A stretch of DNA of 64,000 nucleotides from an uncultured Elusimicrobia bacterium (GCA_964623465.1 CAZURZ010000001.1:1660-65659); one strand, 5' to 3'; positions 5,261-45,308 are shown, counted from the stretch's first letter. Notes: generated by a model from the sequence alone, not told the origin. Numbers and translations are program-made.

Positions 5261-7008
5261 GCGTCCGGCGCCGCCTTCTGCGCTACCTCAAGCCGTACCT
5301 GGGCCGCTTCGGCTGGGCGTGCGCCGCGATGGCCGCCGTCTCCGCCTTCAACGGCCTGACGGTGCTCCTGCTCAAGCCGATCGTCGACGAGGTCTTCATC
5401 GCCAAGGACCTGCGCATGCTCGCGCTGGCCGTGGCGGGCCTGCCCCTGCTCGTCGCTCTCAAGGCCGTCGCCTCCTACGCGCAGAACTACTTGATGAGCT
5501 GGATCGGCCAGCGCGTCAGCCAGCAGATCCGCGAGGACCTCTTCCGGCACCTGCACCTCCTGCCGCTCGAATTCTACTCGGGCCTGCGCGGCGCCGACGT
5601 GCTCTCCCGCGTGACCGGAGACCTCACCCTGGCCCAGTCGGCCCTGACGACCCTGCCCGTGTACCTCATCCGCGACACGCTCACCGTCGCGTTCCTCGTC
5701 GCCTCGCTGTTCAAGCTCGACTGGCGCTTCGCCCTGCTCACGGTGCTGTGCTCGCCGCTGTCGCTCGCCGCCCTGCTCGTGCTCTCCAAGAAGATGCGCG
5801 CGGCCAGCCGCCAATCTCAGATCGCGGTCGACCGCCTGCACCATCGGTTCCAGGAGAGCGTCCAGGGCATGACGACGGTGAAGGCCTTCAACTACGAGGA
5901 AGGCGCCACCGAGAAGTTCCAGGAGGAGAACGAGTCCTTCTTCCAGCCGATGATGCGCTATCTGCGCGCCACGGCCCTGATGAATCCGCTTCTCGAGGCC
6001 GGCGCCTCGGTGGCGGTCGCCGCGGTGATCTGGTTCGGAGGACGGGAAGTCATCAACGGCCGCATGACTCCCGGCGCTTTCTTCGCCTTCCTCGGCGCCC
6101 TCATCGCCTCGTACGCGCCGATCAAGAATCTCGCCCGCGTCAACGCCGAGGCCCAGCGCGCCTGGGCGTCGGCCGAGCGCCTGTTCCGGCTCCTGGAGGA
6201 GAAGCCCGCCGTCCCCAAGAGCCGCAAGCCCCCGCTCCCGCCGCTCTCCCGCGCGATCACGCTCGAGGGCGCGAGCTTCAAGTATCCCGGCGCGTCCGGC
6301 TGGGCCCTGCGCGGCCTCGACCTGGAGATCCCCAAGGGCGCCCGCGTCGCGATCGCGGGTCCCAGCGGCTGCGGCAAGACCACGGTCGCCAAGCTTCTCC
6401 TGCGCCTGCACGATCCGGCCGAGGGGCGGGTCGCCTTCGACGGCGTCGACGCGCGGGAATTCGACGCGGCCTCGATCCGCGCGCGCGCCGGCTTCGTCCC
6501 CGCCGACGCCCTGCTCTTCAACGACACCGTCCTGCAGAATCTCGCCCTGGGCCGCAAGGTCGTCACCCTCTCGGAGGTCGAGCGCGCGGCGCGCGCCGCC
6601 GGAGCGGACGCCTTCATCTCGGCCCTGCCCGAGGGCTACCGCACGACGATCGGCGACTGGGGCTTCTCGCTGTCGTCGGGCCAGCGGCAGAAGCTGGCCA
6701 TCGCGCGCGTGCTGGTCAAGGACCCCGAGCTCATCGTGCTCGACGAGGCCACCTCGCATCTGGACGCCGCCTCGCGCGGGGAGGTTCTGGCGGCCCTGGA
6801 GACCGCCTTCGCCGGCCGCACCGTGGTGTCGATCACCCACGATCTCGCGTCCGCTCCTCAATCGGATCTCATCTACGTGCTCAATTCCTCCGGCTCCCTC
6901 GCCGAGAAGGGGACGCACGCCGAATTAATGCGCGCCGGCGGCCTGTACCGCCGCCTTTACGATCTCCAGAGCGCGTCGCGCGACGCCGGACCGGAGGCCC
7001 TCGCTTGA
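5257..7008 (+). CDS. msbA: lipid A export ABC transporter, fused permease/ATPase (MsbA-like)
   Basis: 583 aa; six-TM N-terminal domain plus Walker A GPSGCGKTT, ABC signature LSSGQRQ and Walker B LVLDEATS; start overlaps the lpxB stop. Confidence 0.8.
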   Translation: MSVRRRLLRYLKPYLGRFGWACAAMAAVSAFNGLTVLLLKPIVDEVFIAKDLRMLALAVAGLPLLVALKAVASYAQNYLMSWIGQRVSQQIREDLFRHLHLLPLEFYSGLRGADVLSRVTGDLTLAQSALTTLPVYLIRDTLTVAFLVASLFKLDWRFALLTVLCSPLSLAALLVLSKKMRAASRQSQIAVDRLHHRFQESVQGMTTVKAFNYEEGATEKFQEENESFFQPMMRYLRATALMNPLLEAGASVAVAAVIWFGGREVINGRMTPGAFFAFLGALIASYAPIKNLARVNAEAQRAWASAERLFRLLEEKPAVPKSRKPPLPPLSRAITLEGASFKYPGASGWALRGLDLEIPKGARVAIAGPSGCGKTTVAKLLLRLHDPAEGRVAFDGVDAREFDAASIRARAGFVPADALLFNDTVLQNLALGRKVVTLSEVERAARAAGADAFISALPEGYRTTIGDWGFSLSSGQRQKLAIARVLVKDPELIVLDEATSHLDAASRGEVLAALETAFAGRTVVSITHDLASAPQSDLIYVLNSSGSLAEKGTHAELMRAGGLYRRLYDLQSASRDAGPEALA

Positions 7009-8450
7009 TCCAGAAGAACGAGCTCCTGGCGCGCTTCGCCGCATACTCGCCCCACGTCGATCCCATCGCGCTCGAACTGGCGTGGGACTTCGCGGAAAAG
7101 GTCCATCTCAACCAGGCGCGCGCCTCGGGCGATCACTATCTGACGCACTGCGCCGCGGTGGCGGAGTCGCTCGTGGAGTGGCGCATGGACCTGCCGTCGG
7201 TGTGCGCCGGCCTCCTGCACGACACGATCGAGGACACGTCCACGACCGAGACGCAGCTGCGGGCCGAATTCGGGGAGGAGATCGCCATGCTCGTCATGGG
7301 CGTCACCAAGCTCGACGCCCTCAAGTTCGAGTCCCGCGACGAGGCCCAGGCCGAGAACTGGCGCAAGATGCTCCTGGCGACCGCGCAGGACATCCGCGTC
7401 ATCGTCGTGAAGCTCGCCGACCGCCTGCACAACATGAAGACGCTCAACTTCCTCAAGCGCGAGAAGCAGGAGCGCATCGCGGCCGAGACGATGGCGCTCT
7501 ACGCGCCGCTCGCTCACCGGCTGGGGATGTTCAAGCTCAAAGGAGAGCTCGAGGACCTGGCGTTCATGTACCTGCATCCGGAGGAGCACGCCGAGCTCTC
7601 CAAGAAAGTGGAGGCGACCTTGGCCGGCAGCGAGAAGAACCTCGCCGCCACCCGCGCCGCCGTCGAGAAGGTGCTCGAGAACGCCAACATCCCGTGCCGG
7701 ATCCTCGAACGACGCAAGACGCTGTGGTCCATCTACGGCAAGATGGAGCGCCAGGGCAAGCCGTTCGAGGACATTCAAGACGCTCTGGGCGTCCGCCTGA
7801 TCACCGACACCGTGGCCAACTGCTACGCCCTGCTGGGGATCGTCCACACCCATTTCCGCCCGGTCGCCGGCTCCTTCACCGACTACATCTCCACGCCCAA
7901 GCTGAACCTCTACAGGTCGCTGCACACCACGATCGTTTCCCCGACGGGAGAACTCGTCGAGATCCAGATCCGCACCGAGGAGATGCACCGCTCATCCGAG
8001 TACGGCATCGCCGCGCACTGGCGCTACAAGACCGGGGAATCGGCGCGCGACGCGCATCTGGAGGAGAAGCTCAACTGGCTGCGGCAGTGGATGGAGTGGC
8101 TCCAGGACCTGAACTCGCCGCGCGAGTTCCTCGATTCGCTCAAGACCGATCTCGAATTCAACCAGGTCTTCGTCTTCACGCCCGCCGGCGAGGTGAAGGT
8201 CCTGCCCGCGGGCGCCACGCCCCTCGACTTCGCCTTCGCCGTGCACACCCAGGTCGGCATGTCCTGCGTCGGCGCCCAGGTCAACAACAAGATGGTCAAG
8301 CTCGACCACGCGCTGAAATCCGGCGACATCTGCAAGATCATCACGAAGAAGGGCTCCACGCCGAAGAAGGACTGGCTGAATTACGTCAAGACCGCCCGCG
8401 CGCGCTCCAAGATCCGCCACTACCTGCGCGAACAGGGGATCGTCGCGTGA
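7005..8450 (+). CDS. short RelA/SpoT homologue: HD hydrolase + (p)ppGpp synthetase + TGS domain, no C-terminal regulatory domains
   Basis: 481 aa; HD motif HDTIED; synthetase region RLITDT...YRSLHTTI; TGS-like VFVFTPAGEVKVLPAGATPLDFAF; TTG start with GGAGG 9 nt upstream; ends directly after the TGS domain. Confidence 0.8.
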   Translation: MIQKNELLARFAAYSPHVDPIALELAWDFAEKVHLNQARASGDHYLTHCAAVAESLVEWRMDLPSVCAGLLHDTIEDTSTTETQLRAEFGEEIAMLVMGVTKLDALKFESRDEAQAENWRKMLLATAQDIRVIVVKLADRLHNMKTLNFLKREKQERIAAETMALYAPLAHRLGMFKLKGELEDLAFMYLHPEEHAELSKKVEATLAGSEKNLAATRAAVEKVLENANIPCRILERRKTLWSIYGKMERQGKPFEDIQDALGVRLITDTVANCYALLGIVHTHFRPVAGSFTDYISTPKLNLYRSLHTTIVSPTGELVEIQIRTEEMHRSSEYGIAAHWRYKTGESARDAHLEEKLNWLRQWMEWLQDLNSPREFLDSLKTDLEFNQVFVFTPAGEVKVLPAGATPLDFAFAVHTQVGMSCVGAQVNNKMVKLDHALKSGDICKIITKKGSTPKKDWLNYVKTARARSKIRHYLREQGIVA

Positions 8451-14878: not shown

Positions 14879-18405
<3,527 letters not shown>

Positions 18406-18409
<4 letters not shown>

Positions 18410-19470
18410 GCCGGCTGCTCGCCGCGCTCCTCGTCCTGCCCGCCGCCGCCCAGACGCTCCACTCCCCCGCGCTCGTCGACCGCGTCCTCGCGCGCGCCGA
18501 AAAGCTCATTCTCTCCCAGGCCGGCAAGGACGCGCGCGACGTCGCCGCCCTCGACCGCGAGGCCGAGCGTCTTTTCCGCGATCTCACGCCTCTCGGCTGG
18601 CGCGCGGCGGAGCCGCTCGGACGCGCGGCCCGCGACGGGAAACGTCCGCCCAAGGTCCGCCTGCTCGCCGCCTCCTGGCTCGGACTGCTCGGCGACCCCG
18701 CCGCTTTCGGACCCCTCGAGGACGTCCTGCTCGACGACGCGCAGCCCGGCTTCGTCCGCACGATCGCGGCTCAAAGCCTGCCCGGCACCGGCGCGCCGGA
18801 CTCCGCGGTCTCCCGCGCGCTGTGCGAGGCCCTGGCGCGCGAGTCCCTTCCGCGCGAGACCGCCGAGATCGCCCTGCTGCCGCTGGCGCGGCTGGGCTGC
18901 CGCGAGCCGGAGCCGCTGCTCCGTCTGGCGCGAGCCGGCGGCCCCCGCCCGGCCGGTCGAGACCTCGCGCTCGCGGGGGCCGCGACGGCGGCTCTCGGCG
19001 CGTCCCGCGGCCCTCTTTCCGCCCGCGCCCTGCTCGGGCTGCTCGCCTATTTCCCGCCCGAGAGCCCGGCGCGCGAACGCGTCGTCGCCGCCCTGGAGCG
19101 CCGCAGCGCAGAGCTGGCGACTTGGCTGGCTCCGGAGGCGCTTCCCGCGGCGCTCGAGGCCCTGCGCACGGAAACCGGGCGCTGGGACACGATGCTCCCG
19201 CTCATCCGCATCGCCGCCGCCTTCGGCCCCGACGCCGCGCCCTCGCTCGAGCGCCTCTGCGGCCACGGCGACGCCGAGGTGCTCGTCGCCGCCGCCGAGG
19301 CCCTGGCTTCTCTGGGCCCGGCGTCGCCCAAGGCCCTGGCCGCGTTCGAGCAAGCCGCCGCGGGCGCGATGACGGATCCTCGCTTCTCCCCCAAGGACGG
19401 CCGCCCGGATCCCGCCGCCCTCCTCGCCCGCCTCGAGAAGGCGGTCGCCGTCCTTCGCCGCGCCCGCTGA
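18406..19470 (+). CDS. hypothetical secreted Ala/Leu-rich helical-repeat protein
   Basis: ATG overlaps the metH stop; signal peptide; HEAT/ARM-like composition. Confidence 0.5.
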
Positions 19471-32625: not shown

Positions 32626-34256
32626 GCACGCGGCCTCGCAACGCCGGCGAGGCCTTGATCCTGCGCTTGAAGTCTCTCGGCGTGGACCGTTTCTATGCCA
32701 ACCCCGGGACCGAGTTCGTCTCCATCATCAGGGGTTTTCGAGACCTGCCGCCCGCGGAGCTGCCGGAACCCGTCCTCGTCGCGCACGAGCTCCAGGCCGT
32801 GAGCATGGCGCACGGCGATTATCTCGCCACGGGCCGCCCCCAGGCCGTCATGACCCATGCGACGGTCGGCGCGGCCAACGCCGTCATCGGCCTGATCGCC
32901 GCCTCGCGCATGAACGTGCCGCTGATCTTCGTCTCCGGGATGACTCCGGCGAACGAGAGCGGCGCGGGCCGCCGCGACCGGCTCCATCACTGGGCGCAGG
33001 ATTCGAAGGATCCCGGCGCCATGTACCGCGAGTACGTGAAGCGGGAGTTCGACGTCCGCGAGCCGGGAGCCCTTCCCGGCGTCCTCGATCAGGCGTACGC
33101 GATCGCCATGACCGAGCCGCGCGGGCCGGTCGCCGTGCGCGTCTCCCGCGACGTCCTCGTCGCCGAGTCGCCGGCCTTGCCCGCTCTCGCGGCCGCCCCG
33201 GCCCCCGCGCCGGCGCCCTCCTTCGACGCCCTCTTCGCCCTGCTCGAAACGGCCCGCCGGCCCCTCGTCGTGACCAACCGCCTCGGCGTCGACCCCTCCG
33301 CGGTGCCGCTCCTGATCGCGGCGGCGCAGCGCCATGGGCTCGGCGTCTCGACGCCCGATGATTTCTACGCGAGCTTCCCGTCGGAGCACCGCCTCCATCT
33401 CGGGTATAAGCAGGGAGCGGCGCTCGCGGAGGCAGACGTCGTCCTCGTCCTGGACGTCGACGTCCCGTGGTATCCGCTCGACAACGGGCCCGCCGCCGCG
33501 GCGAAGGTCGCGCACATCGGCCCGGACCCCCGCGCCGAGAGCATCCCGCTGCGCGGCCATCGAGGCAATCTCTTCCTGAAAGCGAATCCGGCGGAGTTCC
33601 TGCGCGCGCTCGCCGCCCGGGAACCGGCCTCGGCGCTCCTGCCGGAACGCGAGGCCTGGTGCGCGACGATGCGCGCGCTGCGCCCGGCGCCCCCCGCGGC
33701 CGCGGACGGGGCTCCGCTCACGGCCGCGATCGTCTCCGTGATCCTCGCCGCGGAAGCGGGAGACGCCGTGCTCGTCAACGAGCTCGGCCTCGTCCCGGAG
33801 TTCCTGCGCCCCCGGCCCGGCGCCTATTTCCGCTCGACGAGCTCCTCGTCGCTCGGATGGGGCGTCGGCTGCGGGCTCGGGCTCGTGATCGCCCGGCCGG
33901 GCAGGACGGCGATCGTCGCCGTCGGCGACGGGGTCTTCTTCCTCTCCCCCGCGCACGGGGCGCTCCTGCTCGCCGCCCGCCGGAAAATCCCCTATGTCCT
34001 CCTGATCCTGAACAACGGGGGCATGCGCTCCGTGGCCGCGGCGACGCGTGAGGCTTATCCCGAATCCGCGGGGGACCTGCCGCTCACGGTCCAGGCCCTG
34101 GAGGGACTCGACGTGTCGAAGACGGCGGACGTCGTGGGCGGCCGGGGCGCCCGCGCATCGACGGCCGGCGAGCTCCGCCTCGCCCTGGCCGACGCCCTGG
34201 CCTTCACCCGCAAGACCGGCCGGCCCGCGGTGGTGGAGGCCCGGATCGCCGCCTAA
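32622..34256 (+). CDS. thiamine diphosphate-dependent enzyme (acetolactate synthase / benzoylformate decarboxylase superfamily)
   Basis: 544 aa; N-terminal Pyr domain and C-terminal GDGVFF...NNGGM ThDP-binding motif; GTGA coupling. Confidence 0.75.
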   Translation: MSTRPRNAGEALILRLKSLGVDRFYANPGTEFVSIIRGFRDLPPAELPEPVLVAHELQAVSMAHGDYLATGRPQAVMTHATVGAANAVIGLIAASRMNVPLIFVSGMTPANESGAGRRDRLHHWAQDSKDPGAMYREYVKREFDVREPGALPGVLDQAYAIAMTEPRGPVAVRVSRDVLVAESPALPALAAAPAPAPAPSFDALFALLETARRPLVVTNRLGVDPSAVPLLIAAAQRHGLGVSTPDDFYASFPSEHRLHLGYKQGAALAEADVVLVLDVDVPWYPLDNGPAAAAKVAHIGPDPRAESIPLRGHRGNLFLKANPAEFLRALAAREPASALLPEREAWCATMRALRPAPPAAADGAPLTAAIVSVILAAEAGDAVLVNELGLVPEFLRPRPGAYFRSTSSSSLGWGVGCGLGLVIARPGRTAIVAVGDGVFFLSPAHGALLLAARRKIPYVLLILNNGGMRSVAAATREAYPESAGDLPLTVQALEGLDVSKTADVVGGRGARASTAGELRLALADALAFTRKTGRPAVVEARIAA

Positions 34257-34273
34257 ATCAGTAAAATGAGCGC

Positions 34274-34318
34274 GCACGCCCCCGTAGCTCAGTTGGTTAG
34301 AGCAGCCTGCTCATAACG
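34274..34318 (+). repeat. tRNA-Met 5'-half fragment (attachment-site direct repeat, left copy)
   Basis: 45 nt identical to 39943-39987 (acceptor stem through anticodon loop of tRNA-Met) and no T-arm follows. Confidence 0.8.
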
Positions 34319-34529
34319 CAATCCCGCGGTCGATGCGTGTGGTTTTTCTCCCTCGGGTAAAGCCGTTCTTCGACGAGGATGCGTGTAAGCCGAGTTCCCG
34401 ACCTTACCCGGTCTTTCCCGCCTTTTCGCTCGGTTTCCAGGGTGTCTTGGCCACAGGGATGCGTGTATGCTCGTCGTCCTCCAAAACCGCGCGCCCTTGC
34501 AGAGACCGCCTGCTTCTGCTACATAAGGT

Positions 34530-34904
34530 TTGATGAAGGCCGTTCGCAGGATATTGTCGGCGCTCTTATTCGGCGGGGTGTTCGCCCCGCTGGGACCCCA
34601 CGCCCTGGTCCACGCGTGGAGCGATGCCCACTTACACCATCATGCCGACGGGGTCGCGCACTCTCATCAGCACGACGCCGATCATCATGAGCATGAGGTG
34701 TCCTCCGGCCTTTCTTGCGATCTGCGGCTCCTGCCGTCTCGCGCGTCCATTCAAGATACCGCGACGACGTTCACGTTCCTCCCCTCCGCGGCTCAGATCC
34801 AGGAAGGCCCTCGGCGCTCCACTCTTCTGTCGTCGTCCTATCGCCCCGGTGCTCCTCCCGGACACCGTGCGTCTCCCCACCTCGGCCGCGCTCCTCCCGC
34901 CTGA
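34530..34904 (+). CDS. putative His-rich periplasmic metal-binding protein (boundaries uncertain)
   Basis: Signal peptide followed by HALVHAWSDAHLHHHADGVAHSHQHDADHHEHE; the C-terminal half is low complexity and may be out of frame or not coding. Confidence 0.35.
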   Translation: MMKAVRRILSALLFGGVFAPLGPHALVHAWSDAHLHHHADGVAHSHQHDADHHEHEVSSGLSCDLRLLPSRASIQDTATTFTFLPSAAQIQEGPRRSTLLSSSYRPGAPPGHRASPHLGRAPPA

Positions 34905-34968
34905 CGGGCTTTCTTCCGTCGCGTCGTAGTCCGTTCCCGATGAACTGACCCCGTCTGTCTGGAGTGCC

Positions 34969-37900
34969 ATGCTTAACGCCATCATTCGCTTTTCTTTGAA
35001 CCGCCGCCTGCTCGTGCTCGTCGCCGCGGCAGCCCTGTCCGCTTATGGTCTGTGGGTCGCCCGGCATCTTCCCGTCGACGTCTTTCCGGACTTGAACCGA
35101 CCGACCGTCGCCATCCTCACCGAGGCTCATGGGCTCGCCCCCGAGGAGGTCGAGACGCTCGTCACCCATCCCATCGAGTCAGCCCTCAACGGCACCCCCG
35201 GCGTCGTGCGCGTGCGTTCCTCGAGCGGCATAGGCATCTCCATCGTCCACGTCGAGTTCGACTGGGGGACGGAGGTGTTCCGGAACCGCCAGCTCGTGTC
35301 GGAGCGGCTCCAGATGCTCAAGGATACCCTGCCCACCGGCATGGTTCCCATCATGGGGCCGGTCAGTTCCATCATGGGTGAAATCCAGTTCGTGGGATTG
35401 ACTAGCCCGGATGGCGCCGTCTCGCCGATGGAGCTGCGTACGCTCGCCGATTGGATCGTGCGGCCGCGCCTCATGACGCTGTCGGGAATCAGCCAAGTCA
35501 TAGTGATGGGCGGCCAGGTCAAGCAGTACCAGATCATGGTCTCAGCCGACCGGCTTCAGCGCAAGGGCATCTCCCTGGAGGAGCTCAAGCACGCCCTTTC
35601 GGAGATCAGCGAGAACACCACCGGGGGCTTCGTCGACCTCGATGATAAGGAGTTCCTCGTGCGCCCTCTGGCTCGCGTCGAATCCGCCGAGGAAATCGAG
35701 AACTCTCCCATTGGCATGCACCTGGGACGGCCGGTCCTCGTAAAGGACGTGGCTGAGGTGCGGGTCGGTCCCAAGACCAAGCGCGGGGAAGCCCGCGTCA
35801 ACGGCAAGCACTCGGTCGTGATGACCATACAGAAGCAGCCTGGGGCGAACACGATCGAACTGACGCGCAAGATCGACGCCATGATCGCCGACCTTCAGAA
35901 GAGCCTGCCGCCGGGCACGCGCCTCGAAGGAGACCTATTCAAGCAGTCGCGCTTTATCGAGGCGTCCATCTCCAACGTAGAGGACGCGTTGAGGGATGGA
36001 GCCATCATGGTCGCGATCATCCTCTTCCTGTTCCTCGTCAATGTGCGCACGACAGCGATCACTTTGGTCGCGATCCCCTTGTCCCTGCTCGTCACCGCCA
36101 TCGTCTTCAAGCTGCTGGGCATGGGCATCAACACGATGACCCTCGGCGGCCTCGCCGTCGCCATAGGCGAACTCGTCGATGACGCCATCGTCGACGTGGA
36201 AAACGTCTTCCGTCGTCTTCGCGAGAACCGCGCGGCAGGGAACCCCAAGAGCTCCTTGCGGGTGGTCTACGACGCCTCCTCCGAGGTGCGCAACTCCATC
36301 GTCTTCTCGACCATCATCGTGGTGCTCGTCTTCCTGCCGCTGTTCGCCCTCGGCGGCATCGAGGGGCGCCTGTTCGCGCCGCTCGGGGTGGCGTACATCG
36401 TCTCGTTGCTGGCCTCACTAGCCGTCTCACTGACCGTGACGCCCGCGCTCTGCTCGTACCTGCTTCCCAACGCGAAGGCGGTCGCCCACCACGACGACGG
36501 CGCGTTCGTCCGCCGCTTGAAAGCCCTGGATCGCGACATGCTCGCCAGGACCATCCATCATCCGAAGGCGTTGCTCGGTGCCTGCGCGGTCCTCCTCGCG
36601 GGCTCCTTGGCGCTTTTGCCTTTCATGGGCCACAACTTCCTCCCGGCGTTCAATGAAGGGACCGCCACCATCGGAGTCGCCGCGGCTCCCGGCATCTCAC
36701 TGGCGGCGTCGGATGAACTCGGCACGCGCATCGAGGAAGCCATGCTCTCGGTCCCGGAAGTGAAATCCACCATACGGCGCACGGGCCGAGCCGAGCTCGA
36801 CGAGCACGCCGAGGGCGTGCACTGGAGCGAGATCGACGTCGACTTCAAGGAAGGCGGACGACCGCGGCAACAGGTGCTTCAGGAGATCCGGGAGAAGGTC
36901 GAGAAGACGGGCGACGTCGCCGTCAACATCGGCCAACCCATCAGCCACCGCCTCGATCATCTGCTGTCAGGCGTCCGCGCGCAGATCGCCATCAAGATCT
37001 CGGGAGTCGAGCTGAGCGAGTTGCGCCGGCTCGGAGCGCAGGTCGAGGCCGTGCTGAAGGACATCCCGGGCGTCGTCGACCTTTCCCTGGAGCCGCTGGT
37101 CCTCATCCCACAGCTCAAGATCGCGGTCGACCGCGAAGCGGCCGCCGGACTCGGGGTGCGCCCCGGCATGCTCGCCCAAGACCTCGAGACCGCCCTGAGC
37201 GGCGAGTCGGTTGGTGAAGTGCTGGAACGGCAGCGGCGCTTCGACATCTTCATGCGGCTCGATGATAAGTCCCGGCAAGATCCGGCGTCCATTCAGGCGG
37301 TCCTCGTGAAGACCATGCCGACCGGACGGCTCGTTACGGTCGGGGATTTGGCCGAGGTCTACAAGGGAACCGGCCCCAACATGATCAACCGCGAGGGGAT
37401 GCAGCGCCGCATCGTCGTCTCGGCCAACTCGCAGGGCCGCGACCTCGGCAGCCTCATCCAGGAAATCCAAGACCGGGTCGCCGATAAGGTCCGGCTGCCG
37501 GAAGGTTACTTCATCACCTACGGCGGCCAGTTCGAAAGCCAGCAGAAGGCCGCTCGCCTGCTGATCCTGCTGGGAGCGGCGTCCTTGATCGGCATCTTCT
37601 TGGTGCTGTACGCCCATTTCCGCTCGACGGTGCTCGCCCTTCAAATCATGCTCAACGTACCGCTGGCCCTTATCGGCAGCCTTTGGGCGATCTGGCTGAC
37701 GGAGAGGACGCTGTCGGTGGCTACGATGATCGCCTTCATCACGCTCTGCGGAATCGCCAGCCGCAACGGCATCATGATGATCAGCCATTACATCCATCTC
37801 ATGAAGGAGGAGGGCGAGGCCTTCAGCGAGAAGATGGTGATCCGCGGCTCGCTGGAGAGGCTCGTGCCGGTCTTGATGACGGCCCTGACCGCCGCTCTGG

Positions 37901-38115
37901 CTCTGGTTCCCCTGCTTCTATCCCGCGGGCAGCCCGGCAAGGAGATCCTGTACCCCGTCGCCGTCGTCATCGTCGGGGGGCTGCTCTCATCGACCTTGCT
38001 CGACATCATCGTCACCCCCGCCGTCTTCCTGCGCTTCGGAAGACGACCCGCCGAAAAGCTTATCGCTCTGGAGAAGGAAGAAGCCGAGAAAGCCGCTAAA
38101 GGAGAGGTGCTATGA
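34969..38115 (+). CDS. heavy-metal efflux RND transporter, CusA/CzcA (HME) family
   Basis: 1048 aa; 12-TM RND architecture with conserved N-terminal LNAIIRFSL...GLW region typical of CzcA/CusA. Confidence 0.9.
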   Translation: MLNAIIRFSLNRRLLVLVAAAALSAYGLWVARHLPVDVFPDLNRPTVAILTEAHGLAPEEVETLVTHPIESALNGTPGVVRVRSSSGIGISIVHVEFDWGTEVFRNRQLVSERLQMLKDTLPTGMVPIMGPVSSIMGEIQFVGLTSPDGAVSPMELRTLADWIVRPRLMTLSGISQVIVMGGQVKQYQIMVSADRLQRKGISLEELKHALSEISENTTGGFVDLDDKEFLVRPLARVESAEEIENSPIGMHLGRPVLVKDVAEVRVGPKTKRGEARVNGKHSVVMTIQKQPGANTIELTRKIDAMIADLQKSLPPGTRLEGDLFKQSRFIEASISNVEDALRDGAIMVAIILFLFLVNVRTTAITLVAIPLSLLVTAIVFKLLGMGINTMTLGGLAVAIGELVDDAIVDVENVFRRLRENRAAGNPKSSLRVVYDASSEVRNSIVFSTIIVVLVFLPLFALGGIEGRLFAPLGVAYIVSLLASLAVSLTVTPALCSYLLPNAKAVAHHDDGAFVRRLKALDRDMLARTIHHPKALLGACAVLLAGSLALLPFMGHNFLPAFNEGTATIGVAAAPGISLAASDELGTRIEEAMLSVPEVKSTIRRTGRAELDEHAEGVHWSEIDVDFKEGGRPRQQVLQEIREKVEKTGDVAVNIGQPISHRLDHLLSGVRAQIAIKISGVELSELRRLGAQVEAVLKDIPGVVDLSLEPLVLIPQLKIAVDREAAAGLGVRPGMLAQDLETALSGESVGEVLERQRRFDIFMRLDDKSRQDPASIQAVLVKTMPTGRLVTVGDLAEVYKGTGPNMINREGMQRRIVVSANSQGRDLGSLIQEIQDRVADKVRLPEGYFITYGGQFESQQKAARLLILLGAASLIGIFLVLYAHFRSTVLALQIMLNVPLALIGSLWAIWLTERTLSVATMIAFITLCGIASRNGIMMISHYIHLMKEEGEAFSEKMVIRGSLERLVPVLMTALTAALALVPLLLSRGQPGKEILYPVAVVIVGGLLSSTLLDIIVTPAVFLRFGRRPAEKLIALEKEEAEKAAKGEVL

Positions 38116-38558
38116 AATACCTGAGTGTCTTGCTTGCCGCATCGCTGTCGCTTCCCGCGTTCGCGCATGATGAAGGCCACGGCCCGAAAGTCGTAGACGC
38201 GGGGAAGATGGGCGGGGTCCTGACGGCCGTCGTCCTCGCCAAGGACGCCAAGTTCGGTCCCAAGGCCGCCCTGGTCTATAAGGCCGAACTGACGCGCACC
38301 GATGACGGCACCGTTCGCATCTACTTTTACGACAAGGACATGAAGCCCCTAGACATCGCGAGCCTCCCAAAGACGGCCAAAGCGGCGCTCCAAGCCAAGA
38401 AGAATAAGAAGTGGACGAGCACGCCCTTCATCCTCGCGAAGACGGCTGATGGCTATGAAGGCAAGGCTCCGAAGCCCGCGAGCAAGCCGTTCAACATCGA
38501 CGTGACGCTGACGGAGGGCAAGCGTGAGCTTCTTGCGGCATTCGATGGCTTGGACTAG
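38112..38558 (+). CDS. small periplasmic protein (148 aa) occupying the position of an efflux adaptor
   Basis: ATGA-coupled to czcA; signal peptide then AHDEGHGP; far too small for a canonical membrane fusion protein. Confidence 0.55.
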   Translation: MKYLSVLLAASLSLPAFAHDEGHGPKVVDAGKMGGVLTAVVLAKDAKFGPKAALVYKAELTRTDDGTVRIYFYDKDMKPLDIASLPKTAKAALQAKKNKKWTSTPFILAKTADGYEGKAPKPASKPFNIDVTLTEGKRELLAAFDGLD

Positions 38559-39801
38559 GCTTCTCGCGTCATTCGCCGTCTTGGCCTTCGCCTCATGGGC
38601 GAGAGCCGAGACGACTCGCGTCGAGTTCAACGACATCCCTCGCCTGGTGCAGCAGCGCAATCGGGCGGTCTCCGGAGCGGCGCTTCAGGCGACGGCGGCA
38701 GAAGCGCGAGAGGGCGCTTTTTCCCGCTCCTTCTTGCCGACGGCGAGCCTCGACGCGGGTCTTGAGCGCTTCCAGACTGGGCGCTACCCCCACGATACCC
38801 AACCGTACGGCTCGGCCGAGGCTCGGATAAACCTGTTCCGCGGCTGGCGCGATGCCTGGAATGAGCGTCATTTGGAGAGCCTTTCTTCCGCCGCCGCGGC
38901 TAAGTCGGCGGACGAGTTGGCCTTTCAGTTGGCCGAGGCGCGGCGAGCATTCCTCAGACTCGTGCACGCACGGGAGATGGGGGCAGTCGTGCGCGAGGCG
39001 CAGACCGAGAATCAGCGTCTTCTTGAACGAGCGGATCGACGCATCAAGCGCGGCTTGGCCACGGAGACGGATCGCCTCGAGTTCGAGATCGGGGCGTCCC
39101 AGCTCAAGGAGGACGGCGAGAGCTACGCTCATTCCGAACTACAGCTGAAGTTGCGCCTGGCCGCGTTGTTAGGACTACCAGAAGATACCGAGCTCGAGAC
39201 GCCTCTAAAGCTCGATCACGTTCACGACGAAGCTCTCCTGAGCACGCCGTTCGAGCCCGGGAGCCATCGTGAAGCCAGGCTGCTAGCCGCGCAGGGCGCG
39301 GCGGCTCATGCCGAGTCAAAAGCGGCGTCCTTATGGTGGGCGCCGTCGTTGGACGCTTACGCGGGGAAATACCTGTACACGCTGCGCGAACGCGACTACC
39401 TCGCGTCGAGCCTTCGCGACGACTTCGCCGTCGGCGGCAAGCTGAGCCTGCGCCTTTTCGACGGCGGTGCAGAACGCGCCGAGGCCAAAGCCAAGCGCCT
39501 TGAAGCCGGCGGTATGGAGCAGAAACTGGCCCAGCGGCGGACCGACCTTCGGGCGCGCGTGCGCGTCGTTGAAGAGGACCTCAAGCACGACCATGAGCTG
39601 GTCCACTTTGCCGAGGATCGCATTGTGATGGCCAGCCGCTATCTCAACTCGACTTTGGACGAGTACGACCGCGGGGTCAAGAACTCGCTGGACGTCTTCT
39701 CGGCTGCGCAGCGCCTGCTCGGCTATCGCCGCGCGCTCGCCGAGCGCCGGCGCGACTACCTGCTCACAAAGGTCAACCTTTTGCAGGAACATGGCTTATG
39801 A
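38545..39801 (+). CDS. outer membrane efflux protein (TolC/CzcC-like OMF)
   Basis: About 418 aa; signal peptide; two-repeat coiled-coil/beta-barrel OMF pattern; alternative GTG start at 38524. Confidence 0.7.
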   Translation: MAWTRLLASFAVLAFASWARAETTRVEFNDIPRLVQQRNRAVSGAALQATAAEAREGAFSRSFLPTASLDAGLERFQTGRYPHDTQPYGSAEARINLFRGWRDAWNERHLESLSSAAAAKSADELAFQLAEARRAFLRLVHAREMGAVVREAQTENQRLLERADRRIKRGLATETDRLEFEIGASQLKEDGESYAHSELQLKLRLAALLGLPEDTELETPLKLDHVHDEALLSTPFEPGSHREARLLAAQGAAAHAESKAASLWWAPSLDAYAGKYLYTLRERDYLASSLRDDFAVGGKLSLRLFDGGAERAEAKAKRLEAGGMEQKLAQRRTDLRARVRVVEEDLKHDHELVHFAEDRIVMASRYLNSTLDEYDRGVKNSLDVFSAAQRLLGYRRALAERRRDYLLTKVNLLQEHGL

Positions 39802-39946
39802 CGTGGCTCAGAGCACTCCGCTCTTGCGGGTCGGGTGGGGTCAGACCTATTCGCTTCAAGCCATGGCCACACGCATGCGTGTTTTGGCCACAACGCGGCC
39901 CCAAACGACCTGTGTGGCCCTCAAAAAAGACTTAAAATATAAGCAC

Positions 39947-40020
39947 GCCCCCGTAGCTCAGTTGGTTAGAGCAGCCTGCTCATAACGGGTTGGTCCCTGG
40001 TTCGAGTCCAGGCGGGGGCA
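39947..40020 (+). tRNA. tRNA-Met (anticodon CAT), elongator-type (tRNA-Ile2 with lysidine not excluded)
   Basis: Cloverleaf: acceptor GCCCCCG/CGGGGGC, D-arm GCTC..GAGC, anticodon loop CTCATAA, T-arm CCTGG-TTCGAGT-CCAGG, discriminator A; G1-C72 and no triple GC in the anticodon stem, so not an initiator. Confidence 0.85.
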
Positions 40021-40040: not shown

Positions 40041-40922
40041 ATGGCCGACAAGATCAAGGGCATCATCCTGGCCGGCGGCTCGGGCACGCGCCTGTACCCG
40101 GTCACCCGCGCCGTCAGCAAGCAGCTCGTCCCGGTCCACGACAAGCCGATGATCTATTACCCGCTTTCCACTTTGATGCTGGCGGGCATACGCGAGGTCC
40201 TGATCATCACGACGCCCGAGGACCGGGCCTCCTTCGTGCGCCTCCTCGGAGACGGCTCGTGGTGCGGCATGAACATTTCGTACGCGGTCCAACCCAAGCC
40301 CGAGGGGCTCGCGCAGGCCTTCATCATCGGCGCGGACTTCGTCGGCGACGACCGCGCGGCTTTGGTGCTCGGCGACAACATCTTCTACGGCCACGGGCTG
40401 CCCGAGCACCTGCGCGCCGCCGCCAAGCAGAAGTCCGGCGCCACGGTGTTCGCCTACCACGTGAAGGACCCCGAGCGCTACGGCGTCGTCGAATTCGACG
40501 CGAAAGGCCGCGCCGTGAGCCTCGCCGAGAAGCCCGCCCAGCCCAAGTCCAACTACGCGGTGACGGGGCTCTACTTCTACGACAACTCCGTGCTCGACAT
40601 CGCCGCCAAGCTCAAGCCCTCCCCGCGCGGCGAACTCGAGATCACCGACGTGAACAAGGCCTATCTGGCCAAGGGGCGCCTCCACGTGCAGAAGATGGGC
40701 CGCGGCATCGCCTGGCTCGACACCGGCACCCACGAGGCGCTTCTGCAGGCCTCGACCTTCATCCAGGTCATCGAAGAGCGCCAGGCCCTGAAGGTGGCCT
40801 GCCCCGAGGAGATCGCCTTCAACATGGGCTGGATCACCGCCAAGCAGCTGCGCGCGCTGGCCGAGCCGATGAAGAAGAACGAATACGGACGCTACCTGCT
40901 GGGCGTCGCCGAAGGCCGCTGA
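40041..40922 (+). CDS. rmlA: glucose-1-phosphate thymidylyltransferase
   Basis: 293 aa; [16 protein letters not shown] nucleotidyltransferase motif and full-length similarity to RmlA/RfbA. Confidence 0.9.
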
Positions 40923-41706: not shown

Positions 41707-42099
41707 TCAGTAGTCGGTCGGCGGCGGGGCGGGAACGAGCTCGGGGCAGCGGGACATCATGTAAGACCCGGGATCCGCGCTCTCCACGGCCCGGGCCTGG
41801 GCGAGCAAGGCCTCGTTGAGGGAGCGCACGACGGCCTCGCCGGAACTCGTTCCGTCGGCGGCCTGGAAGGAACAGGTCCGGGCGTCGAAGACGAAGCGCC
41901 CTTGCGCGCCGCTCACGCCGCCCGCCAGCACGGCCCGTCCCTTCTCGAACCGGCCGCCCATGGAGCGATGGCAGGAGACCTGGGCCTCATACGGCCCCGC
42001 GGGCTCGGCGGCGCGGCCCTGGGCTTTCTTCGCGACCTGGGCCGGAGCCGACGGCGACAGGATCGAGACGAGTACGGCGGCGGCGATGAACCGGATCAT
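41707..42099 (-). CDS. hypothetical small secreted protein
   Basis: ATG preceded by a GGAGGAG ribosome-binding site; signal peptide. Confidence 0.5.
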   Translation of the reverse strand: MIRFIAAAVLVSILSPSAPAQVAKKAQGRAAEPAGPYEAQVSCHRSMGGRFEKGRAVLAGGVSGAQGRFVFDARTCSFQAADGTSSGEAVVRSLNEALLAQARAVESADPGSYMMSRCPELVPAPPPTDY

Positions 42100-42250
42100 G
42101 GACTCCTCCTCGCGTCGAGCGGCGATCACAGTATGCGCGGGACGCGCGGGCGCGTCATGAGGCGAGGGACCCAGCCGGCCCTGGGTCCAAGGTCCGAACA
42201 GAAGCGGGCCGCCGCGTTCCGCGCGGCGGCCCGCTCGTCCGATCCGTCCG

Positions 42251-44890
42251 TCAGGCGCCCTTCGAGACCTTCTCGAGGGTGAGCCAGCGGTTGGTGCCCG
42301 CGAACTTCTGATGCATGCGGGTGCGCGGCTCGGCCGGCTGGGCGACTTCGGTGAGCTGCAGGTCCGCCAGCGCGTCGATGCCCCGCTCGCGGAAGCCCTT
42401 CAGCGAGTTCTCCAGCGCCATGCCCATCGTGCGGAAGGCGAGCAGGGTCGAGAACTGCAGGGTGAAGCCGAGCTTGCCGAGGGTCTCGTTGGTGATCAGC
42501 GTGTTGTTCTGCTTGGCCTTGCCCCAGTGCAGGGAGGGCGAGAGATTGAAGCCGAGCATCTGATTCGGGTAGTGCTTGTGCACGCCCTCGGCGAACCGCT
42601 GCGGGCCCTCGAGATCGGTGTTGTTGAACTCCGGCCAGATCACGTCGACGCCGAGCGAGGCCGCCTCGAGCGCGCGGTCGATCGCGTGCTGGACCGAGCC
42701 GCCGCGGCCGCCCGGCACCGCGCCGTCGACGGCGTCCGTGCGCGCGATGATGACGAGGTTGGTCTCCGAGGCCTGCGCGGCCGCCTTCACCGCGATCAGC
42801 TTCTCGATCCACTTGTTGGTGGGCACGAGGACCTTCTCGCGCTTCACGCCGTGGTGCGCGACGATGTGGCCGCAGGTGCGCTCCGCCGGGTCCTGGTCCT
42901 CGAGGTGCACGCCGGCGACGCCGGCGCGGATCAGCTCCCGGGTCAACGTGAAGGTCTGAGTCGGGCCGCCGAAGCCGGCCTCGATGTCGGCGAAGATCGG
43001 CGGGGTGTTGAGAACCTTTCCGCCGTCGTCGTAGAAGTGACGGTCGCGCGTCCCCTCGATCCCGCGCACCAGCTCGCGGACGAGGTCGACCATCATGTGC
43101 GAGGGATAGATCCCGATGTCGGGATACATGTTGTGCGCGACGGCGAGCTGCCAGCCGGACGCGTAGATCGCCTCGAAGCCGAGATCGGTCAGGAGCGAAG
43201 CCGTCATCGCGTCGTAGGAGCCCGCGGTGTGGAGGAAGGAATTTTTCGGATCGCTCAAGCGGTTCGCGAACTTCGCCTTGAGCAGGGAGCGCAGCTTGTC
43301 CGACGGATGGGTCTTCTCGTGGGGCGCGTACATCTTCGCGAACTCGGCGGCGGGGTACTTCCAGGCCTTGATGCCCTCGGGGAGAGGGGCGGCGGCTTCC
43401 TTGATCATCTGCTGGCTCCATGCGCTCGCGCGTCTGTATTTATCCGCCGTGGCGGACTCCGGACCGTTTGCGGCCAAGATTTTTCCGGTCTCTTCCTCGA
43501 ACCAGCGCGCCACGTCGGCGGCGGCGTGCACGCCGTGGCGGACGCGCTGGGCGATCATCAGGCGGTAGATGCGGTCGGTCGCCAGGTCCTCCATGAAGTT
43601 GCCGATCAGGGCGCCGTCGGCGTCGTAGCCCTTGATCATGCGCGCGCCGAGGCCGGAGAGCACCCCGAAACGGTACTCGACGCAGGTCCGGATCGCGTCG
43701 CGCGTCCCCGCCTCGGTGACGGCGCCCAGCCCCATCGGGGACGGCGTCAAGTCCGGCTTGAGGAAGCCGGGGTGGCGGACGCCGAGCTGATTGGGAGCGG
43801 GAAACTGCGAGATCGCGCCCGCGTGCTGGTCGGGATGGCCGGTCCAGGCGCCGTCGAAGCCCAGCGCGGCCTCGTTCTTCTTGTCGGCCGCGAGCTTCTC
43901 CATCGCGCGCGCGTTCACGGCCGCGTCGGTTCTGTCCGGAAAAAGCGCCGTCATGCCGCCGATCGCCAGAGCGCCGCGCTTGTGGCAGCACTCGACGAGG
44001 CGGCGGCGCAGGTTCTGAAAGAAGGGCACGTCGTGAGGGATCGTGTTCCGGTCGGGCAGTATCCAGCCCGGATCGGCGAGCTTGAAATGAAGCAGGCTCG
44101 CCATGTAGTCCCAGCGTCCGAGATTGAGGCCGATCACGTGCCGCCGCGCGGCGAACAGGATCTCCTCGATCTGATAGGCCGCCGGCAGGGACTCGATCAG
44201 AAACATGACCTTGGTCGTGCCGGGAGGGATGCCGATCGACTCCTCCATCGAGGTCAAAACCTCCGACCACCAGGCGGCCTCCTCGTGGGACTCGGTCTTC
44301 GGGATGTAAAAACAGAGCTTGGCGCGGAGCGCCTCGTCCTTCACGGAAGCGCGGCGCAGGTCGGCGGCGCCGTGGAAGACGGCGGCCAGGTCGAACAGGG
44401 CGCCGGAGACCGTCTCGCCGGGAATCGCGTTCGTCTCGTCGAGGTGCAGGCCTCGCGGGCGATAGAGCATGACCTGCTTCGAGGGCTTGATCTTCGCGGT
44501 CTTTCGCGCGGCGTCGGTGAACGAGAGCTCGCCCTTGATCGCCGCGATCACGTTGCGGTGCCCGGCGCCGACGTTCGTCCAATCGGTCGTGATCGAGTCC
44601 TCGCCGTCGGGCATGCAGCCCGGATCGGCCGTGTTCGTCATCGCGACGAGGAGCTTGGCGTTGTCGGCCGGGCCGGTGATCTGATTGCGCTGATCCGCGG
44701 CCCAGGCGGGCACGGAGACCGACCAGCTTCCCTCGGTCGCCTCGGAGGGCGGAAGATAGCCGGGCGGGCGTCCCTCGTGAGCGGCGGCCAGGGCCCGACG
44801 GCGGGCTTCGACGAGGACGCGGCGGCGGGGCTCGAACGCGCGATGCAGCGGGAGGAAGAACTCGAGCAGCTCTTTCGTGGGCGCGTCCAC
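42251..44890 (-). CDS. bifunctional glyoxylate-cycle enzyme: malate synthase A (N-terminal) fused to isocitrate lyase (C-terminal)
   Basis: Single 879-aa ORF; N-terminal half carries MS-A motifs (LNLGRWDYMAS, GFDGAWTGHPD); C-terminal half carries ICL/PEP-mutase motifs (FEAIYASGWQ, GVHLEDQ, RTCGH, IIARTDA). Confidence 0.8.
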   Translation of the reverse strand: MDAPTKELLEFFLPLHRAFEPRRRVLVEARRRALAAAHEGRPPGYLPPSEATEGSWSVSVPAWAADQRNQITGPADNAKLLVAMTNTADPGCMPDGEDSITTDWTNVGAGHRNVIAAIKGELSFTDAARKTAKIKPSKQVMLYRPRGLHLDETNAIPGETVSGALFDLAAVFHGAADLRRASVKDEALRAKLCFYIPKTESHEEAAWWSEVLTSMEESIGIPPGTTKVMFLIESLPAAYQIEEILFAARRHVIGLNLGRWDYMASLLHFKLADPGWILPDRNTIPHDVPFFQNLRRRLVECCHKRGALAIGGMTALFPDRTDAAVNARAMEKLAADKKNEAALGFDGAWTGHPDQHAGAISQFPAPNQLGVRHPGFLKPDLTPSPMGLGAVTEAGTRDAIRTCVEYRFGVLSGLGARMIKGYDADGALIGNFMEDLATDRIYRLMIAQRVRHGVHAAADVARWFEEETGKILAANGPESATADKYRRASAWSQQMIKEAAAPLPEGIKAWKYPAAEFAKMYAPHEKTHPSDKLRSLLKAKFANRLSDPKNSFLHTAGSYDAMTASLLTDLGFEAIYASGWQLAVAHNMYPDIGIYPSHMMVDLVRELVRGIEGTRDRHFYDDGGKVLNTPPIFADIEAGFGGPTQTFTLTRELIRAGVAGVHLEDQDPAERTCGHIVAHHGVKREKVLVPTNKWIEKLIAVKAAAQASETNLVIIARTDAVDGAVPGGRGGSVQHAIDRALEAASLGVDVIWPEFNNTDLEGPQRFAEGVHKHYPNQMLGFNLSPSLHWGKAKQNNTLITNETLGKLGFTLQFSTLLAFRTMGMALENSLKGFRERGIDALADLQLTEVAQPAEPRTRMHQKFAGTNRWLTLEKVSKGA

Positions 44891-45029
44891 GCGCCTACCT
44901 TAAGAAACATCGCGGCGGGCGTCAATGACCAATGAACGCGAATCGCGGACGATTTTTTCGCCCCCCCCCTTGCGATTCCCGAAAAGTCCGGTTACACTCC
45001 TAACCCACTCTCGAACGGAGGTTTACCGC

Positions 45030-45308
45030 ATGAGAAAGAAGACCGCCCGCGCGGCCGCCAAGGCCGCCCCCGCTCCCCGCAAGAAGGCCCCCGTCCGCCG
45101 CTCGCTCGTGCTCAAGCCCGAGTCGATCTCGGCCGACGAGGTCGTGCAGATCGAATCCGTCGTGAAGCGCTTCGAGGAGAGCGAGAAAGCCTGGCAGCGG
45201 ATGACCGCCGCGCCGGACGAGGACGACAAGTGGTCCTCGGTCGAGGAGCATCTTCTCGCGCGCCGCGACGGGGACGCCGAAAGACGCTGGAAATTCTTTT
45301 CGAAATAG
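45030..45308 (+). CDS. small hypothetical basic protein
   Basis: GGAGG ribosome-binding site 8 nt upstream of the ATG; divergent from the MS-ICL gene. Confidence 0.4.
   Translation: MRKKTARAAAKAAPAPRKKAPVRRSLVLKPESISADEVVQIESVVKRFEESEKAWQRMTAAPDEDDKWSSVEEHLLARRDGDAERRWKFFSK

Follow-up and report, generated by a model that had tools for sequence, protein, structure and literature searches.

The tRNA-Met locus and its truncated copy

We analysed a 64,000-nucleotide stretch of DNA from an uncultured Elusimicrobia bacterium (GCA_964623465.1, CAZURZ010000001.1:1660-65659; hereafter the window), in which a four-gene metal-efflux cassette lies between two copies of the 5′ half of a tRNA-Met gene. 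The single tRNA called by ARAGORN in the window is tRNA-Met(CAT) at 39947-40020 on the + strand, which scores 67 bits against the Rfam tRNA model. Its nt 1-41, together with the 4 nt 5′ of the gene, form a 45-mer, GCACGCCCCCGTAGCTCAGTTGGTTAGAGCAGCCTGCTCATAACG, that occurs exactly twice and in direct orientation: once within the intact gene (39943-39987, +), as an attR-like core, and once as an orphan 5′ fragment (34274-34318, +), as an attL-like core, which lies upstream of the gene on the same strand at a repeat-to-repeat spacing of 5669 bp. Both copies are exact, as the first-pass annotation of this DNA had claimed when it described a 45-bp direct repeat of the tRNA-Met 5′ half around an insertion. 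A search of the window with a 36-nt core, allowing up to three mismatches, returned the two repeat sites only, with 0 expected in shuffles. The repeat spans the 7-nt anticodon loop (gene nt 33-39) and 2 nt of the 3′ strand of the anticodon stem, and identity ends abruptly at both of its edges. The sequences 5′ of the two copies are unlike (...AGTAAAATGAGCGC versus ...ACTTAAAATATAA), and 3′ of the left copy the sequence continues as CAATCCCGCGG..., a sharp break after tRNA nt 41.

The orphan begins 18 nt past the stop codon of a gene for a thiamine pyrophosphate (TPP)-dependent enzyme and does not lie within a conserved protein domain. The Rfam scan at E ≤ 1 matched the intact gene only and did not detect the left copy as a tRNA. 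Local alignment of the 45 nt that follow the left copy with the tRNA 3′ half scored below the shuffle mean and so showed no similarity, which ruled out a reading of this downstream sequence as a degenerate 3′ half. Because ARAGORN and Rfam call only the intact gene and no 3′-half similarity follows the orphan, the left copy represents a cleanly truncated 5′ half rather than another tRNA gene; the first-pass annotation was right to think a divergent tRNA unlikely here. Just upstream of the orphan, TAAAAT at 34262-34267 (+) may be the −10 box of the native tRNA promoter, now displaced, and a TA(A/G)AAT box lies 7-9 nt 5′ of this tRNA in 12 metagenome relatives.

The identity of the intact tRNA deserves a comment. 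Its acceptor stem (GCCCCC...) and variable-loop/T-arm region resemble E. coli ileX more than elongator metT, and the gene at 39947-40020 may therefore encode a lysidine-modified tRNA-Ile2(CAU) instead of tRNA-Met.

A four-gene efflux cassette between the repeats

Four genes lie between the repeats, all on the + strand: those for a His-rich protein, a resistance–nodulation–division (RND) pump of the CusA/CzcA family, a 148-aa periplasmic protein and an outer-membrane factor (OMF). The first-pass annotation had listed the same four products. The first, encoding a small His-rich secreted protein (34533-34904, from the translation of the open reading frame, ORF), is preceded by a conserved cassette leader, CTTGC...TTCTGCTACATAA (34496-34532, +), which is promoter-like and may function as such; homology with the cassettes of three contigs from other genomes (L009, L010 and L005) starts at this leader. 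The N-terminal ~60 aa of the His-rich protein are conserved in the same three contigs, no Pfam or NCBIfam match was found for it, and its ORF has an atypical GC content by codon position (0.71/0.55/0.71). The second gene encodes an HME-type RND permease (34969-38115; Pfam ACR_tran, 2e-266), which scores 831.9 bits against TIGR00914 (CusA/CzcA; cut-off 701.45) and has CusA as its best match in the PDB (3e-154). The gene for the 148-aa periplasmic protein (38112-38558) overlaps both of its neighbours and is followed by that for the TolC-like OMF (38524-39801; Pfam OEP), which matches PF02321 OEP in two stretches (6.7e-23) and TIGR01844 and TIGR01845 below their cut-offs.

Both flanks are ancestrally linked to the tRNA

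The last gene before the orphan is that of the TPP-dependent enzyme (acetolactate-synthase-like; 32643-34256, +; Pfam TPP_enzyme_N/M/C), and the intact tRNA is followed by rfbA, encoding a glucose-1-phosphate thymidylyltransferase-type NTP transferase (40041-40922, +; Pfam NTP_transferase). On the left side, a cupin–isochorismatase–TPP enzyme order is common to the window and its Elusimicrobiota relatives L006, L007 and L008, with 72% amino acid identity; L006 and L007 are metagenome-assembled genomes of Elusimicrobiota. A scan of genome contigs with the TPP enzyme gave only two relatives, at 72% identity, with local synteny limited to three genes. In L007, an amidohydrolase–GTP cyclohydrolase–cupin–isochorismatase–TPP enzyme run is syntenic with the window, and tRNA-Met is found 7 kb further on. 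On the right side, rfbA lies directly 3′ of this tRNA in at least seven relatives (L009, L011, L012, L014, L015, L016 and L019). A metagenome scan with the tRNA 5′ half returned 12 JGI contigs, in all of which the tRNA is intact and in 6/12 of which rfbA comes directly after it; the cassette, the orphan and the GGTT allele of the window were each found in 0/12. Upstream of the tRNA, L018 carries a peptidase M3 gene, as does the window.

Because the left-flank synteny leads to tRNA-Met in L007 and the tRNA–rfbA order is conserved, the island splits an ancestral neighbourhood. These gene orders link both flanks ancestrally to this tRNA, with the orphan occupying the place where the left flank would be expected to meet the tRNA and the intact copy occupying the corresponding place of the right flank.

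Several further features were seen around this tRNA in the relatives and the window. L007 contains a second, independent orphan at 18420-18604 (CAZTZW010000009.1), made up of a terminator hairpin, a promoter and tRNA nt 1-32; a 40-nt spacer containing a perfect 10-bp hairpin comes next, and the 57-nt promoter region and the tRNA start then recur at the contig end. Unlike the repeat in the window, this duplication takes in the promoter, and identity ends before the anticodon loop. In L014, the region 5′ of the same tRNA (2476-5054) holds genes with a low GC content at third codon positions (GC3), 0.65-0.69 compared with 0.85-0.96 in the flanks, among them one for a Schlafen/AlbA_2 and HATPase_c_4 protein; we take these genes as another sign that foreign DNA gathers 5′ of this tRNA. 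Among the relatives, the T-arm occurs as two alleles (GGTCCCTGG...CCAGG versus GGTCGCTGG...CCAGC) and the D-loop is polymorphic (T/C); neither variation tracks the promoter type. Beyond rfbA in the window, an 879-aa ORF at 42251-44890 (−) combines malate synthase domains (MS_N, TIM barrel, MS_C) with an isocitrate lyase/PEP-mutase domain and is a fused glyoxylate-shunt enzyme; it falls within a segment of ~3.4 kb (41707-45100) that is missing from the otherwise syntenic L011.

Foreign composition and the cassette in other genomes

The GC content is 0.60-0.66 over the island and 0.68-0.77 in the left flank. The first 700 bp of the island, which the first-pass annotation had described as lower in GC, measure 0.61-0.63. 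The GC3 of the island genes is 0.76-0.85, compared with 0.91 for the TPP enzyme and 0.94 for rfbA in the adjacent flanks, and the same cassette in L005 and L010 has a GC3 of 0.91-0.95, matching its neighbours there. The codon composition of the island is foreign.

The four-gene cassette is common among contigs of Elusimicrobiota and Bdellovibrionota, where it lies in unrelated contexts. Two contigs share the right-hand end of the island. In L009 (Logan DRR493918), a cassette of 85% nt identity precedes the same promoter block AAAAAGACTTAAAATA, tRNA-Met and rfbA, and the left flank carries a LysR-type gene and a gene for a 397-aa secreted protein. In L027 (Logan SRR28401809), the order after a cassette of 89% nt identity is the same promoter, tRNA-Met, a 3.1-kb stretch of other genes and rfbA, the last with 87% nt identity to that of the window. 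The 16-nt promoter block, at 39924-39939 (+) of the window, is identical in all three sequences, and relatives that lack the cassette have a different one. What varies between the cassette–promoter–tRNA loci are the downstream genes and the T-arm allele; the promoter block travels with the cassette. In L027, GC3 breaks at the tRNA, from 0.83-0.86 in the cassette to 0.91-0.95 for most downstream genes (one has 0.86).

These two contigs bear on a point raised by the first-pass annotation, which held that the same arrangement in related genomes would speak against an insertion. The cassette–promoter–tRNA junction is indeed shared by L009 and L027, whereas the twelve other relatives lack the cassette. 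We do not hold the shared junction to refute an insertion, because the GC3 of L027 breaks at the tRNA and the promoter block travels with the cassette, and because twelve relatives are without the cassette and the orphan is unchanged at 45/45 positions.

Other surroundings of the cassette and of this tRNA were recorded alongside. Between tRNA-Met and rfbA, L027 carries genes for a DUF1579 protein, a 391-aa protein, a 160-aa protein and HlyIII (2161-5320); according to this contig the downstream side of the tRNA is variable too, and no 3′ tRNA fragment was found there. At 14834-14963 of L023, where the contig ends, a tRNA-Ser-like gene begins ~90 nt past the OMF stop codon, and tRNAs also occur near the cassette in L010 (tRNA-Ser(CGA) at 17295-17384, 2.4 kb downstream) and L005 (tRNA-His at 7899-7975, 2 kb upstream). 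A distant four-gene cassette, with a 148-aa protein 45% identical to that of the window, is present at 5700-15200 of L028 (IMG/VR UViG 3300048589_001596; 49.5% GC), where it lies with CNNM/CorC and DUF1232 genes in a lambda-like prophage head module, between portal/terminase and S49 protease/capsid E; no att-like direct-repeat pair was found around the L028 cassette.

Repeated motifs at the inner ends of the island

Just inside each repeat lies a short segment with repeated motifs. The left inner arm (P′-like; 34319-34495, +) contains GATGCGTGT at 34332-34340, 34378-34386 and 34458-34466, and TGGCCACA at 34448-34455. The right inner arm (P-like; 39802-39942, +) contains the palindrome ACACGCATGCGTGT at 39869-39882, TGGCCACA at 39864 and 39885, and GTGTGGCC at 39912-39919. 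The 8-mer ATGCGTGT has five copies in the 64 kb, compared with 0.88 expected, and all of them lie within 150 nt of the two repeats, on their inner side; none of 100 shuffles reached five copies. The three copies of TGGCCACA in the window (34448, 39864 and 39885) are confined to the arms. In 20000 randomly drawn pairs of segments matched in size, no pair had an exclusive 8-mer with at least four copies (observed, five); the maximum was three copies, in 3 pairs. This exclusive-k-mer test was used in place of a count of shared 8-mers, which is uninformative as a motif statistic, since 25% of the random pairs reach the observed count.

When the arms are joined right-to-left, they give a site of ~275 bp in which an inverted motif pair stands ~107 nt before the anticodon loop, followed by the tRNA promoter and 5′ half and then by three direct motif copies at about +23, +69 and +149. 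The attP length given in the Islander paper is ~250 bp (PMC4383910). The joined arms thus have the layout of an attP with arm-type sites, and from their sequence the motifs themselves may be recombinase binding sites. No intrinsic-terminator-like site was found on the + strand between the orphan and the cassette, so transcription from the displaced native tRNA promoter may continue into the efflux operon.

The repeats and motifs can also be set against the age of the cassette. Its third-position divergence from L027 and L009 is 0.29-0.38, and a neutral 45-nt orphan of that age would be expected to carry 6-8 changes; none is seen (45/45 identical; P of zero ≤ 0.002), and all five copies of ATGCGTGT are perfect. 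Because the orphan is identical at 45/45 positions despite this divergence, either the integration is recent (younger than the cassette divergence, the unit having moved) or the att sites have been maintained.

Proposed integration at the anticodon loop and its alternatives

Flank synteny, foreign codon composition and arm motifs together support a real insertion of foreign DNA into tRNA-Met, and with it the core of the first-pass reading, in which a foreign segment in the tRNA gene re-supplies the 5′ half. A site-specific event is favoured because the end fragment has the same orientation as the gene and the 5′ fragment lies upstream of it, as integration into a tRNA gene (tDNA) predicts. A crossover in the anticodon loop fits because the identity block ends 2 nt past the loop, the commonest sublocation of tDNA crossovers; anticodon-centred sites account for 2083/3919 islands in Islander (PMC4383910). 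We infer that the insertion was made by a recombinase with a crossover in the anticodon loop, and we consider 34319-39942 to be probably, though by no means certainly, a non-autonomous island resembling a cis-mobilizable element (CIME), integrated site-specifically at the tRNA-Met anticodon loop, with its integrase supplied in trans or lost.

In such an event, a recombination of the tyrosine-integrase type would have been centred on the anticodon loop of the chromosomal tRNA-Met(CAU), and the attachment site of the island would have borne a tRNA promoter and gene nt 1-41. Integration would thereby have shifted the native promoter and 5′ fragment to the left end (attL, 34274-34318) and rebuilt a working gene at the right by joining the island promoter and 5′ half to the 3′ half on the chromosome (attR, 39943-40020). 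Just inside each repeat, the former attP arms would remain, and their motifs (three copies of GATGCGTGT on the left; on the right, the inverted pair and the TGGCCACA repeats) would serve as binding sites for the recombinase and accessory proteins. The recombinase would be encoded elsewhere and act in trans, as for cis-mobilizable elements, or would have been lost. Excision would be predicted to give an empty site reading ...AGTAAAATGAGCGCGCACGCCCCCG...CTCATAACGGGTTGGTCCCTGG... and then rfbA, and a circle with the junction ...AAGACTTAAAATATAAGCACGCCCCCG...CTCATAACGCAATCCCGCGGTCGATGCGTGT.... Between the decayed island and the element mobilised in trans that the first-pass annotation had offered, the perfect 45-nt repeats and the arm-like motif clusters, both seen at the level of sequence, lean towards intact att sites.

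A number of results weigh against this reading. No recombinase family was found in ORFs of at least 95 aa in any frame between the repeats, in agreement with the first-pass annotation, nor among the ~55 GC3-supported genes of the whole window, which are housekeeping genes (e.g. LpxC, FabZ, RelA/SpoT, RecG, MetH, GlnA and ParAB); no integrase was found 5′ of this tRNA in the relatives L011, L014 and L018. Scans of viral contigs with the core, the attL junction and the arm motif gave 0 matches, and so revealed no free or prophage attP. A protein search with the TPP enzyme returned nothing between 72% and 100% identity, and hence no conspecific empty site. L009 has no orphan within 1.9 kb upstream of its cassette, and both L009 and L027 are without the motif-bearing arm segments though they share the right junction: the window has ~95 extra nt after the OMF stop codon (39802 to about 39893), and its left arm has no counterpart in L009. 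Either the arms were lost from these copies or they were added in one lineage only. At the D-loop position both copies of the window have T, and L009 and L027 have C, so the direct donor is not among the sequences seen. Finally, the arm motif was spotted by eye and tested afterwards; the random-pair test was framed without reference to it. Two further searches concern mobility more broadly: no integration or conjugation genes were found on the island by Pfam, NCBIfam and all-frame ORF searches, and a BLAST of the island against plasmids and phages gave only distant similarity of the RND gene (65-68%).

The main rival is an insertion driven by homology and without an integrase, in which donor DNA like that of L027 or L009 would have entered by RecA-dependent recombination with the conserved tRNA, and possibly rfbA, as anchor, either through a Campbell-type crossover of a circular fragment in the 45-nt homology or through homology-facilitated illegitimate recombination ending at tRNA nt 41. 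Such a route would accord with the lack of an integrase anywhere in the window and with the cassette–promoter–tRNA order, which is already a chromosomal arrangement in L009 and L027; the tRNA is near-identical across the lineage, offering homology, and the 4 extra upstream nt (GCAC) are also lineage-typical. However, it leaves unexplained the exclusive repeated motifs at both inner ends and a junction placed exactly at the anticodon stem-loop, which we estimate at ~1 in 10 for a random breakpoint. The only candidate donor types seen are without the arm segments, and a homology of 45 nt is close to the minimum for efficient recombination by RecA, which also counts against this route. We regard it as unlikely. 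An old dead island, integrated before the window, L027 and L009 split, with its integrase deleted and its orphan kept identical by gene conversion, would account for a right junction common to three genomes, for the absence of an integrase and for the similar divergence of the cassette and rfbA from L027 (89% and 87% nt identity). Against this stand the orphan at 45/45 and the five perfect 8-mers despite a third-position divergence of ~0.3: gene conversion would not keep the arm motifs, identity stops sharply at the ends of the 45-mer, and GC3 is still unameliorated in both the window and L027. This history seems to us improbable.

Two further explanations were also weighed. The window comes from a 74.8-kb metagenome-assembled contig, the tRNA is conserved between community members and the GC of the island is unlike that of its flanks, all of which might suggest an assembly chimera of two organisms joined through the conserved tRNA sequence. 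A chimera, however, cannot make the junction between tRNA nt 41 and CAATCCCGCGG, since some genome must hold the truncated copy, the arm and the cassette; both flanks have an equally high GC3 (0.91 and 0.94), and each is syntenic with this tRNA in relatives, so that at worst the identity of the left flank would be wrong. We consider a chimera very improbable. That the left copy is a second tRNA gene, divergent or decaying after duplication, could draw on the duplicated promoter and 5′ tRNA segment of L007, which shows that local duplications do occur at the locus, but it is effectively refuted: neither ARAGORN nor Rfam (E ≤ 1) calls the copy, what follows nt 41 bears no relation to the 3′ half, the two copies have different upstream sequences, and decay would not leave 45 perfect nt beside complete dissimilarity.

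A CusA/CzcA-family pump without an adjacent membrane-fusion gene

The cargo of the island differs in several respects from known efflux systems of its family. The three-methionine metal site of CusA is formed by M573, M623 and M672. Because the Met-triad positions align to G/W/H in the pump of the window (phmmer alignment to 3t51_A), the Cu(I)/Ag(I) specificity given in some source annotations is not supported for it by its sequence, and the name 'CusA/SilA Cu(I)/Ag(I)' carried by close homologues is probably wrong on specificity. The TM4 segment of the pump reads VDDAIVDVEN, with an AcrB-like DD.

No membrane-fusion family (CusB/CzcB/HlyD-type) was detected by Pfam and NCBIfam profiles in any cassette protein of the window, and no membrane-fusion gene was found beside the cassette in nine homologous loci (L001, L005, L009, L010 and L023-L027) from the precomputed Pfam annotation of the neighbouring genes. 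For the 148-aa protein, 393 homologues were collected, in which the signal peptide is invariantly followed by AHDEGHGPK (mature N-terminus HDEGHGPK); it has no family match among the Pfam and NCBIfam profiles. Its AF2 model (pLDDT 85.8) predicts a small β-sandwich and not a membrane-fusion protein; a fold search gave only weak FN3/Ig-like matches (E > 0.01, TM ~0.35), from which no function was assigned. Like CusCFBA and CzcCBA, the cassette combines a permease that passes the CusA/CzcA model, with CusA as its best solved relative, and a TolC-like OMF in the same operon. Unlike them, it is without a CusB/CzcB gene, has G/W/H at the Met triad and carries two unannotated His-bearing periplasmic proteins instead. 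The question raised by this cargo is how a conserved CusA/CzcA-family pump and an OMF operate without an adjacent membrane-fusion gene.

Relation to known islands and significance

The closest comparison is with the tDNA islands of Islander (Hudson, Lau & Williams 2015, PMC4383910), which likewise pair an intact tRNA gene with a cognate 5′ end fragment upstream in direct orientation and an identity block ending at the anticodon stem-loop; at 5.7 kb, the island of the window is within their 2-200 kb range. It differs from them in having no tyrosine integrase, so it fails the Islander integrase filter and agrees with that scheme in all other respects, and also in being very small, cargo only and hosted by an uncultured member of the Elusimicrobiota. 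The first-pass annotation had called the re-supply of a 5′ half unusual. This does represent a minority class, with a 5′ tDNA fragment in 159/3919 Islander islands and a 3′ fragment in 3760/3919 (PMC4383910), but the claim was overstated, since the configuration is already known. The island is a fairly ordinary kind of genomic island, and its 5′-half configuration, being a documented minority, is no novelty.

As in the CIMEs of Streptococcus (ICEberg 2.0, PMC6323972), integration and transfer genes are lacking, and mobility would depend on the recombinase of a related element; the perfect repeats at the two ends may likewise be intact attL and attR sites. In contrast to CIMEs, no cognate integrative and conjugative element (ICE), integrative and mobilizable element (IME) or prophage was identified for the island, and its target is a tRNA 5′ half and not one of the ICESt-family sites. 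The tycheposon islands of Prochlorococcus (bioRxiv 10.1101/2020.12.28.424599) also have a variable foreign region on one side of a specific tRNA, include tRNA-Met(CAT) among their targets, retain partial tRNA copies that mark past integrations and carry niche-adaptation cargo; the island of the window, in another phylum, lacks their hallmark genes (recombinase and replication module) and has a single cargo unit between its repeats. It is therefore not demonstrably a member of either the CIMEs or the tycheposon-seeded islands.

A bolder reading, which we offer as speculation and doubt more than we believe, is that the island is a living member of an undescribed Elusimicrobiota family of integrase-less 'cargo cartridges', each made of one operon joined to a minimal attP (arm sites with a tRNA promoter and 5′ half) and carried from host to host by a recombinase that is encoded outside the element and acts on the tRNA-Met(CAU) anticodon loop. 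The cargo operon would be placed behind the displaced, still active promoter, and the cargo might be a new two-component-adaptor variant of the HME-RND systems without a classical membrane-fusion protein.

Current understanding is not overturned by this island. It does show that a recognisable att architecture can be present in islands that finders relying on an integrase would discard. Should the att sites be active, the island would serve as a minimal substrate in the search for the cognate integrase and the motif it binds, and would be a case of an element supplying the promoter of an essential tRNA. To our knowledge, very little has been described of mobile elements in the uncultured phylum Elusimicrobiota; the locus presents a clean, precisely bounded horizontal acquisition of a metal-efflux operon in this group.

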